From NCBI GenBank assembly GCA_031291995.1, contig JARLHZ010000025.1, forward strand, positions 156,266 through 220,265: DNA of 64,000 bases, read 5' to 3'. The position numbers were made by a program, and so were the translations under genes. Positions 3,216 to 63,713 of the stretch are shown in pieces. The notes beneath the pieces are model-generated. The model did no database searches. It was not told the DNA's origin and saw only the letters and a program-made list of their open reading frames with translations. Positions within the stretch are counted from its first letter, which is position 1. The number at the start of each line of letters is the position of its first letter. This DNA is from Candidatus Doudnabacteria bacterium (GTDB taxonomy: Bacteria; Patescibacteriota; Doudnabacteria; UBA920).

Positions 3216-3230
3216 TTAGGTTTACGAAGT

Positions 3231-3288
3231 ACGAAGTTTTACGAACTTACGAAGTTCGTAAGTTCGTATTTGTTCGTACTTCGTAAAA
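3231..3288. repeat. Hairpin repeat family 1, copy 2, between prfA and prmC
   Basis: Same arms as 484-566 but lacks the central 15-nt ttagtgcacaaactt segment. Confidence 0.8.
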
Positions 3289-6398: not shown

Positions 6399-6797
6399 CT
6401 ACTTTGTCGCGCCTTTTGTAAATCCGCTTATAAAATCTCCCTTAAAACTCCGAATAGCCTGGTGGATGCCTAAAACTTCGTTGGCTTTTATGGGGCCAAG
6501 TTTGTTGAATTTTGAGCTATCCTGCGCGGTTAAGTCCGTGACCATGCCGACAGAAAATACTTCGGGCCCGCGGATTTCGACATTGAACATCACGGAACTT
6601 TTGCACTTTTGGCAATCGGAATGTATGAGAATTCTGGCTTCATTAAACACCGTATCCTGTTCGCTTTCTAAAACTTTAGTTTTTTCCAGGTTATATTTGT
6701 GGCTGCATATCGGACAGCGCAACAAAAAGCCCAGCCATTCCATAATCTTTTTTAAATCATAATTTTTGCCGTCTCCGCCCGGTGTGTTGTTTTTCAT
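6399..6797 (-). CDS. Hypothetical C4 zinc-ribbon protein
   Basis: CPICSH...DCQKC cysteine pairs. The start is taken at the internal ATG (MKNNTPGG) because the track's upstream start lies inside the family-2 repeat. Confidence 0.45.
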   Translation of the reverse strand: MKNNTPGGDGKNYDLKKIMEWLGFLLRCPICSHKYNLEKTKVLESEQDTVFNEARILIHSDCQKCKSSVMFNVEIRGPEVFSVGMVTDLTAQDSSKFNKLGPIKANEVLGIHQAIRSFKGDFISGFTKGATK

Positions 6798-6801
6798 AGG
6801 T

Positions 6802-6930
6802 AGTAATCGCGAAAATACGAATATTTTATAATATACGAAACCGTTCACTGTCAGCTGTCTTTTCCATTAAAGATAAGCTGACAACTAACGGTTTTGTATA
6901 TTAATTTAGATTTGTATATTTGCGACTACT
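6802..6930. repeat. MITE-like repeat family 2, copy A (degenerate)
   Basis: About 40-bp terminal inverted repeats agtaatcgcgaaaatacgaatatttt... / ...tttgtatatttgcgactact. The internal cactgtcagc...gctgacaact inverted repeat is shared with copies at 9053-9180 and 31141-31270. Confidence 0.8.
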
Positions 6931-8050: not shown

Positions 8051-8117
8051 TAATCGTTATCTTTAACCCCCAATCGTTAAAGGTTAAATCCGCTTTTGAC
8101 GGAAACGATTAAGGGAG

Positions 8118-9052: not shown

Positions 9053-9180
9053 AGTAATCGCTAATATACGAATCATTTATAATATACGAAGCGGTCCACT
9101 GTAAGCCGCCTGTTCTACGAAGTAATGCCTACAACTGACGGCTTCGTATATTAATTTTGATTCGTATATTCGCGATTACT
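9053..9180. repeat. MITE-like repeat family 2, copy B (best-preserved TIRs)
   Basis: agtaatcgctaatatacgaatcatttataatatacgaagcgg ... ccgtcttcgtatattaattttgattcgtatattcgcgattact, a near-perfect 40-bp TIR pair, immediately upstream of dnaE. Confidence 0.85.
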
Positions 9181-13532: not shown

Positions 13533-13574
13533 CGGCCCGTATTGAAGGACGAAATCAATAAATGGCGCTTCCGT

Positions 13575-13637
13575 GTGTCATCCCGACCGAGGTTCGTCAA
13601 TGGAATTTAATGGACGGACGGAGCGGAGGGATCCCTT
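13575..13637. repeat. Family 3 repeat, partial copy (left TIR gtgtcatcccgaccgag + ggagggatccctta core)
   Basis: Shares the left TIR and central core with 13951-14026 and 2022-2134; the right TIR is missing. Confidence 0.65.
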
Positions 13638-13650
13638 ATCCTTCTAAATT

Positions 13651-13941
13651 ATGCAAGACAGCCAGTATTTTGTATACATAATGTCCAGCGTCAGCGGAAC
13701 CTTTTATATAGGAGTAACCAATGATTTATATAAAAGAGTTTACCAACATAAAAGTAATATAATCGAAGGTTTTACGAAAAAGTACGAATGCCATAAACTG
13801 ATATATTTTGAAGAGACTTCCGATATAGAGAGCGCAATTTTAAGAGAAAAGCAGTTAAAAAATTGGAATCGCAAGAAAAAAGAATTTTTAATCGCGACAA
13901 AGAACGCAATCTGGAAAGATTTAAGTTTAGATTGGAAATAA
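13651..13941 (+). CDS. Small GIY-YIG nuclease-domain protein
   Basis: YFVYIM...GTFYIGVTNDLYKRVYQHK is the GIY-YIG motif; 96 aa. Flanked by family-3 repeat copies. Confidence 0.75.
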   Translation: MQDSQYFVYIMSSVSGTFYIGVTNDLYKRVYQHKSNIIEGFTKKYECHKLIYFEETSDIESAILREKQLKNWNRKKKEFLIATKNAIWKDLSLDWK

Positions 13942-13950
13942 ATTATTAGT

Positions 13951-14026
13951 GTGTCATCCCGAGCGAGTGCAGCCGAGTCGAGGGATCCCTCCGCTCGTCG
14001 GCTGCACTCCGCGGTCGGGATGACAC
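13951..14026. repeat. Family 3 repeat, 76-bp imperfect palindrome (gtgtcatcccgagcgagtgcagccgagtcgagggatccctcc...gtcgggatgacac)
   Basis: Blocks gtgtcatcccga / gtgcagccga / gggatcc are mirrored on both arms. It lies between the GIY-YIG gene and the thrS start. Confidence 0.8.
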
Positions 14027-14043
14027 ATAATGGAGATACGGGT

Positions 14044-29474: not shown

Positions 29475-31130
29475 CTATTTAATGTCGCGCATCTCCCGCA
29501 TGCTACGCCCGGTGTTTTCGCCTTTTCGGGCTTTGGGAGTAACCCAGAATTCAAGATACTGGCCGAACATAAGGCGGGTTTGGGCTTCCACCGCGGGAAG
29601 GCTGCCAAAAATTACCGAAACTATCGGGACAAATACCCATTGTAAATACATCATAATGCTCCGCCAGACGCTGTATTTTTTCGGCCGGGGCGGCAGCAAA
29701 ACCAGGTTAACATAAACGCTGAAAATCAAAAAAATCAGCGCCGTATTTAAAAGGATAACGGTTATTTTTGGCAAGTTATATCCGACCACGCTCTGGTTGA
29801 ACGCGTCCCCGCCCAAATACAAGGGAAGACGGCCCAAAATGACAATTAAAATGCTGGCCGTGGCCCAATTAAAATTTCCTTCCACATATTGGTACAGCTT
29901 GTAAATTTTATCCCATAACGGGGCGCCGCTTTTTAGCAATTTGGGGATTAATTGGGGGTAGTATTCCACATTGTAAGCCCAGCGGCGTTTTTGCTTATAT
30001 TGGTTGACCATGGTCTGCCAGGTGCTGTCGGCCAGGCATGTGTCCAGGGAAATTGGAATAAATAGCGGGGATACGCGGTAGTCGCCGTTATAACGCAGGT
30101 AGCATTGCCAAAAAATATAACCGTCTTCATTTACAATATCTTTTTTCCATAATCCGACCTCAAGAAGGGCTTTTAAAGTCATGGTATGCGACGAAAATGT
30201 GCGCAAACGATCCGGGCGGCTGCTTTCGGTAAATTGCCAAAAAGAATTGGAGACCGAAACTACGCGGATGATGGCGGGGCTGTCCCAAATATTGTTATTA
30301 TATACCGCGACCGGCTGGTAGCTTTGCCGGTAAGGTTTTTCCGCCAGAAGAAATTCATACATGACCCGCGAGAAGTATTCCGGATGGACAATGGTGTCAG
30401 AATCAAAATTCGAAACCAAAACCTGGGGAACCGAAATATTCAGTTTTTCCAGTTCGGGAAGGATTTGGTTAATGGCATAACTCGCGTTGGCGCTTTTCCC
30501 TTTTATTTCACCCGGCAAACCATCCGGATGGCAAGTAACGAAAAACCGGAAGAAGCGCGGTCCATATTTTTCCTTTAGTCGGCCTTCCGCCTGCCGTGAC
30601 GCCTCGCCCGCGCGCTGTTCCCCGGCTAAAACCAGAAGCATTTTTTCTTTCGGATAGTCGCTATCGGACAAAGCTTGAAAAGTCGAATCCAAAACCTCAA
30701 AACTTTCGTCGCTAAATGGGATGAGTATTAAATGATAGTATGGCGAGTTGTCCAGCGTGAGACGGCCGCCGAGAATTTTCGCGTTGACGGCCTTTATTTC
30801 GGCCTTAAAAAAGTGCCGGGAGGTGAGCGTATTGGCCGCGGCTTTTTTATCGGACAAAAATTTCTCAAATGCGGGCAGGTCTTTAAGCCTCTCCACATAA
30901 TCGCCCCAGTTAATGGTTACGCAAAATCGGAATTTTTTGTAGGCGGCTATCAGGTGGCTTGCCGTATTAACGGCTTTCATGACCCAGTATAAATCAAAGC
31001 AAATAATAAACAGAGCGGCCCAGACCGGGCGGTAATAAGACAACCAAATACTACCAAAAAAAACTACCCAGAACTGCAGTCCCGGTAGAATTTCCCAAAA
31101 TCGTTCCTGTTTTGTTCGTTTCCTGTACAT
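29475..31130 (-). CDS. Family 2 glycosyltransferase, processive membrane-embedded type
   Basis: DxD-like (NFDSDTIVHP) and QxxRW (QKRRW) motifs. N- and C-terminal TM segments as in cellulose/chitin-synthase-like GT2. Start at the internal ATG 31130, which abuts the family-2 repeat. Confidence 0.75.
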   Translation of the reverse strand: MYRKRTKQERFWEILPGLQFWVVFFGSIWLSYYRPVWAALFIICFDLYWVMKAVNTASHLIAAYKKFRFCVTINWGDYVERLKDLPAFEKFLSDKKAAANTLTSRHFFKAEIKAVNAKILGGRLTLDNSPYYHLILIPFSDESFEVLDSTFQALSDSDYPKEKMLLVLAGEQRAGEASRQAEGRLKEKYGPRFFRFFVTCHPDGLPGEIKGKSANASYAINQILPELEKLNISVPQVLVSNFDSDTIVHPEYFSRVMYEFLLAEKPYRQSYQPVAVYNNNIWDSPAIIRVVSVSNSFWQFTESSRPDRLRTFSSHTMTLKALLEVGLWKKDIVNEDGYIFWQCYLRYNGDYRVSPLFIPISLDTCLADSTWQTMVNQYKQKRRWAYNVEYYPQLIPKLLKSGAPLWDKIYKLYQYVEGNFNWATASILIVILGRLPLYLGGDAFNQSVVGYNLPKITVILLNTALIFLIFSVYVNLVLLPPRPKKYSVWRSIMMYLQWVFVPIVSVIFGSLPAVEAQTRLMFGQYLEFWVTPKARKGENTGRSMREMRDIK

Positions 31131-31140
31131 AAATGGCAGA

Positions 31141-31270
31141 AGTAATCGCGAATATACAAATTTATTATTAATATACGAAGCGGTACACTGTAAGTTAATT
31201 TTTCTATTTTGATCGGCAGACAACTCTTGGTTTCGTATATTAATTTAAGATTCGTATATTCGCGATTACT
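31141..31270. repeat. MITE-like repeat family 2, copy C
   Basis: agtaatcgcgaatatacaaatttattattaatatacgaagcgg ... ggtttcgtatattaatttaagattcgtatattcgcgattact. It fills exactly the spacer between two minus-strand genes. Confidence 0.85.
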
Positions 31271-31619
31271 AGTTGACCCTGGTTAAAAACAGTACCGCGG
31301 AAAGTAAAATAAACTCCACAAAAAAACTTACCAGCGCGCTTAACGCGGCCAAAAAATCCTGCCTATTCTTAATTGCTCGAAAAAGAGTGAAATTAACAAT
31401 TAAGATTGCCATTCCAATAGCCGGAATAAAGTAGAGGTTCCGACCCGGCCCATACCATAAAACCCCGACTAATACGTTATAATGAAGCGCAAGAGGGCTT
31501 TGACCGGGTTTGATTTTGAAATAAAGGAACAAAAATGTTATAATGTTAAGCGTTAAGGATAACGCCCAAAGAAACCAAACATTTCTGAAATAGTTTTTTA
31601 TAATCGAAATAAAATCCAT
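31269..31619 (-). CDS. Small multi-TM membrane protein (possibly GtrA-like)
   Basis: Three to four hydrophobic helices. Start placed at the internal ATG to avoid overlap with the divergent GT39 gene; start uncertain. Confidence 0.4.
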   Translation of the reverse strand: MDFISIIKNYFRNVWFLWALSLTLNIITFLFLYFKIKPGQSPLALHYNVLVGVLWYGPGRNLYFIPAIGMAILIVNFTLFRAIKNRQDFLAALSALVSFFVEFILLSAVLFLTRVN

Positions 31620-54193: not shown

Positions 54194-54269
54194 CGCGGGA
54201 TAGAGCAATTGGCAGCTCGCAAGGCTCATAACCTTGAGGTTCCCGGTTCGAGTCCGGGTCCCGCAACCA
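54194..54269 (+). tRNA. Initiator tRNA-fMet (CAT)
   Basis: CGCGGGA...GCTCATAACC...GGTTCGAGTCCGGGTCCCGCAACCA. It has the C1:A72 mismatch and A11:U24 pair characteristic of bacterial initiator tRNA, is strongly collinear with E. coli tRNA-fMet, and carries an encoded CCA. Confidence 0.9.
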
Positions 54270-54393
54270 AGCTAATTTTTGATTCATTTGATGGAAAATT
54301 AACTTGGTTTAAAACCTAAAATCCTAAAATCGTGACAGATTTTAAAGCTTTCTGTCGAAAGTTTTTTTATTTAAGATACCGCAGGTTTTTGTT

Positions 54394-54470
54394 GCCGGGG
54401 TAGCTCAGTTAGTTAGAGCGTGGGACTCATAAGCCCAAGGTCAGAGGTGCAATTCCTCTCCTCGGCACCA
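54394..54470 (+). tRNA. tRNA with CAT anticodon (elongator Met or lysidine-modified Ile2)
   Basis: Acceptor gccgggg/cctcggc; D-arm tagctcagttagttagagc; anticodon loop ctCATaa; encoded CCA. The T-loop is an unusual TGCAATT and there is an A31:G39 mismatch. Confidence 0.7.
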
Positions 54471-54594
54471 CTCGACTCGCTTTGGCTTGCGCCAATACTC
54501 GCTCGTGGTTTCGGCTATTGGGAAGCCTCAACCACCAATTTAATTCGAAGCGACCCGAGTGGTGTCATCTTATACCACTAAATATTAAAAATAT

Positions 54595-54671
54595 GGGACC
54601 GTAGCTCAATTGGTTAGAGCACTCGCCTGTCACGCGAGAGGTTACGGGTTCGAGCCCCGCCGGTCCCGCCA
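54595..54671 (+). tRNA. tRNA-Asp (GTC)
   Basis: Acceptor gggaccg/cggtccc; anticodon stem-loop ctcgc-ctGTCac-gcgag; T-loop ttcgagc; encoded CCA. Confidence 0.85.
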
Positions 54672-60055: not shown

Positions 60056-60061
60056 ATGGCT

Positions 60062-60115
60062 TTCTACTAAATACTAAAAGATACTAAAGATACGAAATAC
60101 TAAACTTGAGATACT
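60062..60115. repeat. Left 54-bp terminal inverted repeat of GxxExxY cassette 1 (tctactaaatactaaaagatactaaagatacgaaatactaaacttgagatacta)
   Basis: The reverse complement of 60535-60588 matches it along its whole length, with a few mismatches. It overlaps the stop codon of the enclosed gene. Confidence 0.8.
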
Positions 60116-60501
60116 ATGTTGACTATTCGTTTACATACCACCCCTGTCTTGGTAAAGTTAGCCAGTATGCCAAGTTTGACATGCTCCAATTTGATATAAT
60201 CACTGAGCTGTTTAATATTTTTTATTCCGAAATTTTCGTGTTTCTTGATCTCCAAGATAATTTTGGCTTCGCCAATTTTGATTAGAAAATCCGCATAATA
60301 AATTCCGATAAACTTTCCCTCGTAATATAGCTTGATTGGATGTTGCTCAACAAAATCAATCCCAGCAAGTTTTAGAGCAATTGCAACAGCTTTTTGGTAA
60401 TGTTTTTCCAATAACTCGCCGCCCAGGTCTTTAAAGACCTTTATCAGAATTCCTACGATTTTATAATATTCATCTTTATAAACCAGGTCTTCCCTTAACA
60501 T
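60100..60501 (-). CDS. GxxExxY-family protein (PD-(D/E)XK nuclease-like), cassette 1
   Basis: YKIVGILIKVFKDLGGELLEKHYQKA N-terminus (GxxExxY motif G-E-L-L-E-K-H-Y); 133 aa. Inserted between atpD and atpC. Confidence 0.7.
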   Translation of the reverse strand: MLREDLVYKDEYYKIVGILIKVFKDLGGELLEKHYQKAVAIALKLAGIDFVEQHPIKLYYEGKFIGIYYADFLIKIGEAKIILEIKKHENFGIKNIKQLSDYIKLEHVKLGILANFTKTGVVCKRIVNIVSQV

Positions 60502-60534
60502 TTTCGTCTATTATTTTTATTTTCGCAAATATCT

Positions 60535-60588
60535 GTACTATCTAAGTTTAGTATTTAGTATATTTAGTATTCTTTCGTATTTAGTAGA
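60535..60588. repeat. Right terminal inverted repeat of GxxExxY cassette 1
   Basis: tactatctaagtttagtatttagtatatttagtattctttcgtatttagtagag is the reverse complement of the left TIR. Confidence 0.8.
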
Positions 60589-60593
60589 GAGGA

Positions 60594-62019: not shown

Positions 62020-62310
62020 TTATTGCTCCTTATTTTTTTTCTGAGACCGGCCGTACTTATCCGGATTTTCGTGGAATTCCTTAACCAATTCGTCAACTTT
62101 CTTGCCGACATCCGTGCCTAATATTTCAGCGGTGTAACGTTTGACATCATCAATGTCCTCAGCGATGTGGACAATATAATTATGTGGCACCTTTTGCAGT
62201 CTTGGGTCAAGATTTCTCTCGGGCAATCTGTTTGCAAGAAAACCCATTAACGACGCTTGGTACTCTTCTTCCGGGGTAAAATCCGGTAAATAATCCAAAA
62301 ATTCCGACAT
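62020..62310 (-). CDS. Hypothetical 96-aa protein inserted between atpG and atpD
   Basis: Intact ORF tightly packed (9-nt and 16-nt spacers) between the gamma and beta genes; acidic, lysine-rich tail; no recognisable family. Confidence 0.5.
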   Translation of the reverse strand: MSEFLDYLPDFTPEEEYQASLMGFLANRLPERNLDPRLQKVPHNYIVHIAEDIDDVKRYTAEILGTDVGKKVDELVKEFHENPDKYGRSQKKNKEQ

Positions 62311-63200: not shown

Positions 63201-63224
63201 TAGAAGCGAATTTGACGCGAAATT
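63201..63224. repeat. Left TIR of GxxExxY cassette 2 (tagaagcgaatttgacgcgaaatt)
   Basis: Matches the reverse complement of 63690-63713 (tagaagcgaatttgtcgcgaaatc) at 22/24 positions. Confidence 0.75.
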
Positions 63225-63245
63225 ACACGCGACTTTGACGCAAAC

Positions 63246-63659
63246 TTATTTATTCCTTGCTAAATCGTAAATTCTTCTTCTTATTTCCAATTTTTCGGGG
63301 TCAAAGTTTATAAGAAAGCCTAACTTGTAACTTGTGGCTTTAAAATAGTACCAAAATTGTTTCTCATCTGCCTTAGTTATAAATGGTTTGTTTTTTACTT
63401 CAACTAGTATTGCCTCATTCCCCACTTTATCCGGGACGTACGTACCAACCTTAGCGCCTTCAAAATAAATATCTATTCTTTTTTGGGACTCTACCTGTAA
63501 GCCTTGTTTTTCTAATGCGATTGTAAGAGCTTTGTCTACCACCGATTCTTTAAAGGCACCGCCAAACTGTTTATATACTTCACGACATGCGGCAACAATT
63601 TTGTAGCTTTCGTCAGGGTATAATAGATCCTTGTTGCGAATTTCTGGCCGGTTATCCAT
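63246..63659 (-). CDS. GxxExxY-family protein (PD-(D/E)XK nuclease-like), cassette 2
   Basis: YKIVAACREVYKQFGGAFKESVVDKAL N-terminus; 137 aa; paralog of 60100-60501. Inserted between atpA and atpG. Confidence 0.7.
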   Translation of the reverse strand: MDNRPEIRNKDLLYPDESYKIVAACREVYKQFGGAFKESVVDKALTIALEKQGLQVESQKRIDIYFEGAKVGTYVPDKVGNEAILVEVKNKPFITKADEKQFWYYFKATSYKLGFLINFDPEKLEIRRRIYDLARNK

Positions 63660-63689
63660 ATTTTCGCTTCGCGTTAATTTCGCTTAGCA

Positions 63690-63713
63690 GATTTCGCGAC
63701 AAATTCGCTTCTA
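63690..63713. repeat. Right TIR of GxxExxY cassette 2, overlapping the atpA stop codon
   Basis: See 63201-63224. Its last three bases (cta) are the rc TAG stop of atpA. Confidence 0.75.

Follow-up and report, generated by a model that had tools for sequence, protein, structure and literature searches.

Palindromic miniature elements between genes of Patescibacteria as probable gene-less copies of a small GxxExxY nuclease cassette

Among the described bacterial repeats, those closest to the elements considered here are Correia/NEMIS of Neisseria and ERIC of enterobacteria, which are short non-coding MITEs of about 100-150 bp with inverted ends, present in many intergenic copies and often co-transcribed. 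In REPIN/RAYT systems, a pair of repeat units placed in inverted order around a spacer forms a non-autonomous element that makes no target duplication, and the presumed mobilising gene is itself flanked by the repeats. Free-standing homing genes have also to be considered, such as those for the GIY-YIG Seg and HNH Mob enzymes of T4-like phages and that for the PD-(D/E)XK enzyme I-Ssp6803I.

How do the repeats found in a Candidatus Doudnabacteria genome compare with these systems? In the window, as we call the whole stretch of 64,000 nucleotides that was analysed, a family of palindromic elements (family 2) is present in three copies. Like Correia/NEMIS and ERIC, family 2 can form long hairpins, and its occupancy of sites varies between related genomes. 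Unlike them, it is accompanied by neither a TA nor any other target duplication, its ends are arrays of 11-bp boxes, its gene-bearing parent encodes a PF13366 nuclease instead of a DDE transposase, and it spans many candidate phyla, not one genus or family. With REPIN/RAYT it shares the inverted hairpin doublet, the lack of a target duplication, a presumed mobiliser flanked by the repeats, the homogeneity of copies within a genome and a long persistence; however, the family-2 gene encodes a PD-(D/E)XK protein of about 130 aa and not a Y1 (IS200-like) transposase, the ends are AT-rich box arrays of 40-45 bp while REPs are GC-rich and 20-40 bp long, and family 2 is lodged tightly between a stop codon and a start codon. 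The gene-bearing cassettes described below resemble free-standing homing genes in that a small nuclease gene lies between conserved co-directional genes and is variably present, no target duplication is made, and spread by cutting and repair is plausible, although the cassettes carry their own long inverted ends to unrelated sites and leave gene-less miniatures. From these comparisons and the observations that follow, the repeats in the window are probably gene-less internal-deletion copies of a small mobile GxxExxY nuclease cassette, which is widespread in Patescibacteria.

An earlier note, made from the letters of the window, had reported three copies of about 128 bp with inverted ends of about 40 bp, and this description is correct and far above chance, the copies being 128-130 bp long. 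Copy 1 occupies 6802-6930 (arms 6802-6844 and 6888-6930), copy 2, with which the note was concerned, 9053-9180 (arms 9053-9095 and 9138-9180), and copy 3 31141-31270 (arms 31141-31183 and 31228-31270), with no strand assigned to any of them. Each end consists of a terminal (T/G)AGTAATCGCG followed by two 11-bp boxes AATATAC(G/A)AAT, and the arms, 39-44 nt long with a complementarity of 82-87%, read from outside to inside (T/G)AGTAATCGC(G/A/T)AATATAC(G/A)AAT, 6-8 nt, and AATATAC(G/A)AA. The terminal 21-mer AGTAATCGCGAATATACGAAT, with three mismatches at most, has six occurrences in the window, one in each arm (0.01 in shuffled sequences), and a search of the window with an nhmmer model of the arm returned these six family-2 arms and no others. 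Every element has four boxes of the ATATACGAA type; exact matches to it number eight in the window, where 0.47 are expected, and all of them are in these elements. In alignment, copies 1-3 have a mean column identity of 83%, which is too low for them to be recent, and they may no longer be able to move. The terminal AGTAATCGCGAAT (window 6802-6814 and equivalent positions) has literature matches only in apparent 16S rRNA primer contexts; we take it to resemble a conserved segment of 16S rRNA, and think that the likeness is a coincidence.

The folding energies of the window copies as single strands are -41 to -61 kcal/mol (z -9 to -13). Their centres are another matter: that of copy 1 folds significantly (z -6.9), and no significant fold was obtained for those of copies 2 and 3 (z +1.45 and +0.97). 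An internal cactgtaag...acaact inverted repeat with compensatory changes between copies had also been proposed, and this did not survive. Besides the centre of copy 1 being the only one to fold, an RNAalifold consensus of seven related copies has an unfavourable covariation term (+1.16), with most of its pairs invariant.

Are these three copies the only ones, as the note had considered possible? A degenerate 21-mer with 18 specified bases, scanned against a collection of species-representative genomes, gave at least 111 matches, and this is not so. Among the matches listed, the terminal 21-mer is found in more than 111 genome stretches, nearly all from Patescibacteria MAGs, and at least 60 full palindromic elements of 40-228 bp, mostly 95-130 bp, are seen together with about 45 single arms. 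The lineages labelled among these matches are Doudna-, Jackson-, Wolfe-, Staskawicz-, Sung-, Jorgensen-, Lipton-, Harrison-, Portnoy- and Beckwithbacteria, Parcubacteria and Minisyncoccia, plus MAGs labelled as Saccharibacteria. Family 2 is, then, not private to the genome of the window and belongs to many Patescibacteria lineages, with three copies in the 64-kb window and several copies per MAG elsewhere. About 15 of the matches listed lie in unrelated taxa, all of them without a second box, and since 18 bases are specified in the pattern, they fit chance; the inner box is present in 87 of the 132 pattern arms among the matches listed. A phage origin was considered and rejected, as a scan of viral contigs gave four matches, each to the 21-mer alone without a second box. 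Literature searches on the motif, on repeats or MITEs of Patescibacteria and on GxxExxY found no prior description.

Within genomes the elements resemble each other more (mean identity 0.79) than between genomes (0.67), and this holds for the centres too. The centres are not self-complementary (mean z -0.09, with only 5 of 40 below -2). The spacers of the arms differ consistently between the two ends of an element, for example TTTAAAAT versus CAAACGC, and so do the terminal sequences (AGTAATCGC versus AGTGTTCGC). As the difference in the arm spacers is conserved, an element has two distinct ends. Both orientations relative to the flanking genes occur, even within single genomes. Non-pairing centres, distinct ends, the use of both orientations and the lack of covariation thus argue against a selected RNA structure, and for DNA ends recognised by their sequence.

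Target-site duplications, whose presence the note had suggested looking for, were not found: the flanking direct repeat has zero length in 53 of the 60 full elements, and the longest one is 3 nt. A TA duplication could be concealed in (T)AGTAA, but a T stands at that position in only about one-third of the ends. Family 2 does have features of classical MITEs, being short, non-coding and multicopy, with terminal inverted repeats and with presence or absence at orthologous sites. Since it has neither a target duplication nor a parent that encodes a transposase, it is not a classical MITE.

What, then, is the parent? The note had pointed to an autonomous element with matching inverted repeats as a thing to be found, and this came out in part: a gene-bearing relative with the same ends exists, but its gene is for a PF13366 nuclease and not for a known transposase. 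At four loci (L103, L060, L058 and L076), family-2 arms about 470 bp apart enclose a GxxExxY gene, which points in the same direction as the downstream gene. This gene fills the centre of the element exactly, with its stop codon inside the inner box. At two others (L068 and L101) a GxxExxY gene abuts a single family-2 arm, and at L024 the arms enclose a GIY-YIG gene instead, an arrangement in which the arms may be a landing pad and not the enzyme's own ends. No transposase was found between paired family-2 arms. A UPF0102/YraN-like nuclease gene was also seen after a single family-2 arm at about 2450-3072 of L079.

No gene-bearing copy of family 2 itself lies inside the 64-kb window, which has two cassettes with arms of other families, both on the minus strand and both inserted in the atp operon. 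The first, at 60060-60591, has TACTAAA-box arms (60060-60107 and 60544-60591) around a GxxExxY gene at 60100-60501, and is inserted between atpD (stop 60594) and atpC (ATG 60055). The second, at 63203-63710, has GCGAA-box arms (about 63203-63245 and about 63660-63710) around a GxxExxY gene at 63246-63659, directly upstream of atpG (ATG 63195). The products of both genes match PF13366 and TIGR04256. Between atpG and atpD, also on the minus strand, there is a 96-aa ORF at 62020-62310 without a Pfam match, possibly another inserted small gene.

Arm families and protein clades go together. Three homologues of the GxxExxY protein of the 60-kb cassette, 74-81% identical to it, were fetched by protein, and all three have the same TACTAAA arms at sites that differ from each other: between pilB and pilC, upstream of thrS, and between genes for DUF8128 and TraG-like proteins. 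Likewise, four homologues of the L103 type (55-69% identity; loci L125-L131), fetched by protein alone, all have family-2 arms on both sides. With three of three for TACTAAA and four of four for family 2, the arm family tracked the protein clade in seven of seven cases. Two of these loci encode an identical GxxExxY protein, and on the right their cassettes end in tandem TATATTCGTT-type boxes (L125 2394-2528 and L126 706-904), with an array of 136 nt in the former and 200 nt in the latter, so that box arrays expand and contract.

One of the four, L131, is from SRR23300985, a sample in which the organism of the window is present too, a link at the level of the sample. The similarity of its cassette to the window copies continues inward from the boxes: on the left, a CTGTAAGTT motif is shared after the inner box, and on the right, ACAACT of the window copies aligns with the last codons and the stop of the GxxExxY ORF. 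Because the alignment runs past the boxes into the end of the ORF, the window copies are taken as internal-deletion derivatives. By this alignment, CTGTAAG and ACAACT in the window copies are subterminal remnants of the gene-bearing parent. A gene for a 23S_rRNA_IVP protein (PF05635), a small gene of selfish type in a slot of the same kind, adjoins the cassette at 405-779 of L131.

The three copies in the window encode nothing, and an intact-site nuclease is a feature of the full-length relatives. In 49 aligned sequences of the GxxExxY protein, G27, E32, D71, E84, K86 and Y102 are invariant, and we read D71, E84 and K86 as an intact D...ExK nuclease motif. The AlphaFold model (pLDDT 94.4) has a predicted PD-(D/E)XK fold, and Foldseek matches it only to generic nucleases with TM scores of 0.45-0.59, namely Cas4, lambda exonuclease, MGME1, Hjc and RecU. 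The protein has no sequence homologue in PDB, and a full-text literature search on its function returned nothing.

It is to be noted where the elements sit. Each copy had been said to fill its spacer, and the positions of the stop codons and ATGs bear this out for copies 1-3. Copy 1 lies between the stop of FtsW (6950) and the ATG (6797) of a 132-aa gene, both genes being on the minus strand. Copy 2 is in a divergent spacer and in the 5' leader of dnaE, whose ATG (9200) is 19 nt away; on the other side, at a distance of 62 nt, is the ATG (8990) of a 290-aa gene on the minus strand. Copy 3 lies between a stop codon at 31269-31271, which overlaps the end of the element, and the ATG of a GT2 gene (31130), both on the minus strand. 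Two further statements of the note agree with our results: no transposase was seen among the selected ORFs of the window that were scanned, and ORFs 6399-6848 and 29475-31223 have spurious upstream extensions that enter the elements. Stretching of ORFs into elements by gene callers is a practical effect on annotation, and it is not restricted to these two window ORFs, as two public gene calls for DnaE homologues (P0219 and P0230) are 1241 and 1247 aa long against about 1165 aa, by read-through of the palindromic element upstream.

A similar placement is seen across loci. In a first pass with an ORF cut-off of 70 aa, about 64 arms had the start of a long ORF 0-13 nt beyond the ATTACT end, mostly 2-4 nt. 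Among the matches listed, 47 of the 60 full elements have such a start within 13 nt of exactly one end, and when this one-sided set was re-derived with a cut-off of 35 aa, 39 of the 47 proved to have a co-directional upstream ORF that terminates no more than 120 nt from the other end. In 29 of those 39, the upstream stop lies -5 to +3 nt from that end, and it overlaps the element's own TAG/TAA in 16 of the 29. The downstream genes include rplB (three cases), secY, nusA, recR and frr, and also rpmJ, rpmI and rpmC, recognised by reading N-terminal translations. All of these genes are normally inside conserved operons. As the upstream stop abuts the far end and the genes are operon-internal ones, the closeness to the ATG is explained by insertion into very short intercistronic spacers. 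A specific regulon was also considered and rejected, because the downstream families are diverse and their recurrences (rplB three times; secY, nusA, recR and dnaE twice each) do not clearly exceed chance.

Comparison with relatives tells whether such sites are always occupied. The window itself is from a Candidatus Doudnabacteria MAG, as a DnaE match of 100% shows. A block of genes, in the order small gene, FtsW, 290-aa gene and the divergent dnaE, is common to the window, to L066 and to four Doudnabacteria relatives with 75-76% DnaE identity (L132-L135). From the small gene/FtsW site to the FtsW/290-aa gene site and to the divergent site before dnaE, the spacers measure 152, 67 and 209 nt in the window, and 125, 94 and 199 nt in L066. 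The corresponding values are 49, 17 and 83 nt in L132 and 71, 15 and 24 nt in L135, and because these spacers are too short for a full element, the two genomes are read as empty at all three sites. L133 and L134 have other palindrome families at the same points, and in L066 the site before dnaE is taken by a different subfamily of family 2, and FtsW is followed by a TACTAA-type palindrome. Such turnover of sites, together with the likeness of copies within a genome, is what one would expect if elements were mobile or underwent gene conversion and used a few permissive sites again and again. In the window, the spacer of 67 nt between FtsW and the 290-aa gene (8051-8117) has TAATCGTT...AACGATTA ends, and TTATCTTTAAC in it is also present in the corresponding spacers of L133 and L134; L066 has a family-2 element there. 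The window spacer resembles either a further small family of palindromes or an element in decay.

How could such elements arise and move? A full cassette consists of a left end, a GxxExxY gene of about 130 codons for a PD-(D/E)XK nuclease, and a right end, each end being (T/G)AGTAATCGCG plus two or more boxes AATATAC(G/A)AAT of 11 bp, spaced 18-19 bp, and the differing spacers of the two ends may be likened to the left and right ends of a transposon. The window copies have kept both ends and about 25 bp of subterminal sequence on each side, including the last codons of the nuclease. A cognate GxxExxY enzyme, supplied in trans from a full copy elsewhere in the genome, would recognise the box arrays, and the element would be moved or copied by a homing-like route of cutting and repair, not by DDE transposition. 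That the nuclease moves the element is what we infer from the co-occurrence of GxxExxY genes with the arms, and we know of no well-studied pathway that fits inverted ends without a target duplication. Insertion into an operon might be tolerated for several reasons: the element has no terminator T-tract, its termini could supply TAG/TAA stop codons, and its ends could pair in the mRNA so as to bring the upstream stop and the downstream start to the foot of one stem. A wider proposal, which we offer tentatively and hold to be possible though still somewhat doubtful, is that GxxExxY proteins (PF13366/TIGR04256), which form a large family, are the mobilising enzymes of an unrecognised class of elements, namely cassettes bounded by box arrays that insert between stop and start codons without duplication, shed miniatures, and owe their tolerance in operons to the pairing of their ends in mRNA.

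The main rival is a REPIN-like scenario, in which an unlinked enzyme, RAYT/IS200-type or another recombinase, moves the palindromes, and the GxxExxY and GIY-YIG genes are secondary invaders that home into their centres. It would explain why most copies have no gene and why no target duplication is seen, as in REPINs; many ends start with GTAG, and the same PrgI/TraC-like junction that has a GxxExxY gene in L131 has, in L024, the GIY-YIG gene within family-2 arms. Such invaders would not, however, be expected to keep company with a particular arm family, as GxxExxY clades do in all seven protein-fetched cases and in both window cassettes, nor to fill the centre exactly with the stop codon in the inner box, and no gene for a Y1 transposase was seen in the parts inspected. 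Since no RAYT gene was found between the arms, where the genes are GxxExxY and once GIY-YIG, the elements do not fall under the definition of REPINs, and we regard this scenario as rather unlikely.

Could the arms instead be regulatory DNA of the host? An arm would then be a compact promoter or operator directed outward (TTCGTA-N17-TATATT-N7-ACTCC-ATG) with a very short leader, and its boxes would bind a conserved factor of Patescibacteria. The arm geometry TTCGTA-N17-TATATT fits sigma-70 spacing, although a scan with the sigma-70 consensus flags no arm as a whole promoter; only the inner-box TATATT of copy 3 pairs, with a weak -35 in the element centre, and canonical TTGACA-N17-TATAAT promoters exist in the same genomes (L071, L113 and L091). 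The arms of the first pass with starts just beyond ATTACT speak for this reading, and so does the element directly upstream of dnaE in both the window and L066. The conservation of the boxes across distant lineages, and single arms between a terminator and an ATG, would also fit a host expression signal, as at L086, where a single arm is the sole sequence between an intrinsic terminator and the ATG of valS; yet few single arms have a terminator upstream (4 of 55, where the control gives 3%), and the enrichment is weak. An upstream stop that abuts the other end, downstream genes that are often operon-internal, the occurrence of both orientations, and empty orthologous sites in relatives with the same gene order led us to drop a promoter or operator as the primary explanation, which we now find improbable. 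Outward promoter activity may still be a secondary role, and may be of relevance at dnaE, whose ATG is separated by the element from a conserved promoter-like block.

That the elements are structured RNAs, with a long transcript hairpin selected as an RNase III site, a stability element or a small RNA, is very improbable in spite of the very stable predicted hairpins and of positions in intercistronic regions that are almost certainly transcribed, since their orientation relative to transcription is not fixed, covariation is unfavourable with most pairs invariant, 35 of 40 centres are not self-complementary and neither are the arm spacers complementary, single arms are common, the boxes are conserved in sequence and not merely in pairing, and Rfam has no family for them, giving only spurious plant miRNA hairpins far below threshold. 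Of the two alternatives left by the earlier note, non-autonomous elements or structured RNAs, the former stands, with MITE-like copies, a gene-bearing relative and sites that are filled, empty or replaced.

Other repeats in the window are placed in a similar way. Four TACGAA units per arm characterise a second family of palindromes, which is wedged in at two places: 471-577, with the rpsB stop (585) on one side and, on the other, an ATG (466) whose product resembles the EF-Ts N-terminus, and 3221-3287, between the stop of prfA (3215) and the ATG of prmC (3292). Hairpin repeats of the form GTGTCATCCCGA...GGGATCCC stand on both sides of a GIY-YIG gene (13651-13941) within 13574-14028, and a further copy of this repeat lies at 2008-2110, downstream of ORF 1652-1912, which by eye encodes an L31-like zinc-ribbon protein, and just before prfA. 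There are also three tRNA genes about 200 bp apart on the plus strand at 54194-54668.

If our preferred reading of the repeats as gene-less copies of a nuclease cassette is true, it gives a first functional context to the GxxExxY nuclease family, which is abundant in Patescibacteria and other bacteria. The layout of stop codon, hairpin and start codon makes a testable model for how downstream translation survives an insertion without a Shine-Dalgarno sequence. And the genomes of Patescibacteria, small and streamlined as they are, would still hold active or recently active selfish DNA inside core operons, for which the window offers the sites between rpsB and tsf, between prfA and prmC, between atpD and atpC, and upstream of atpG.
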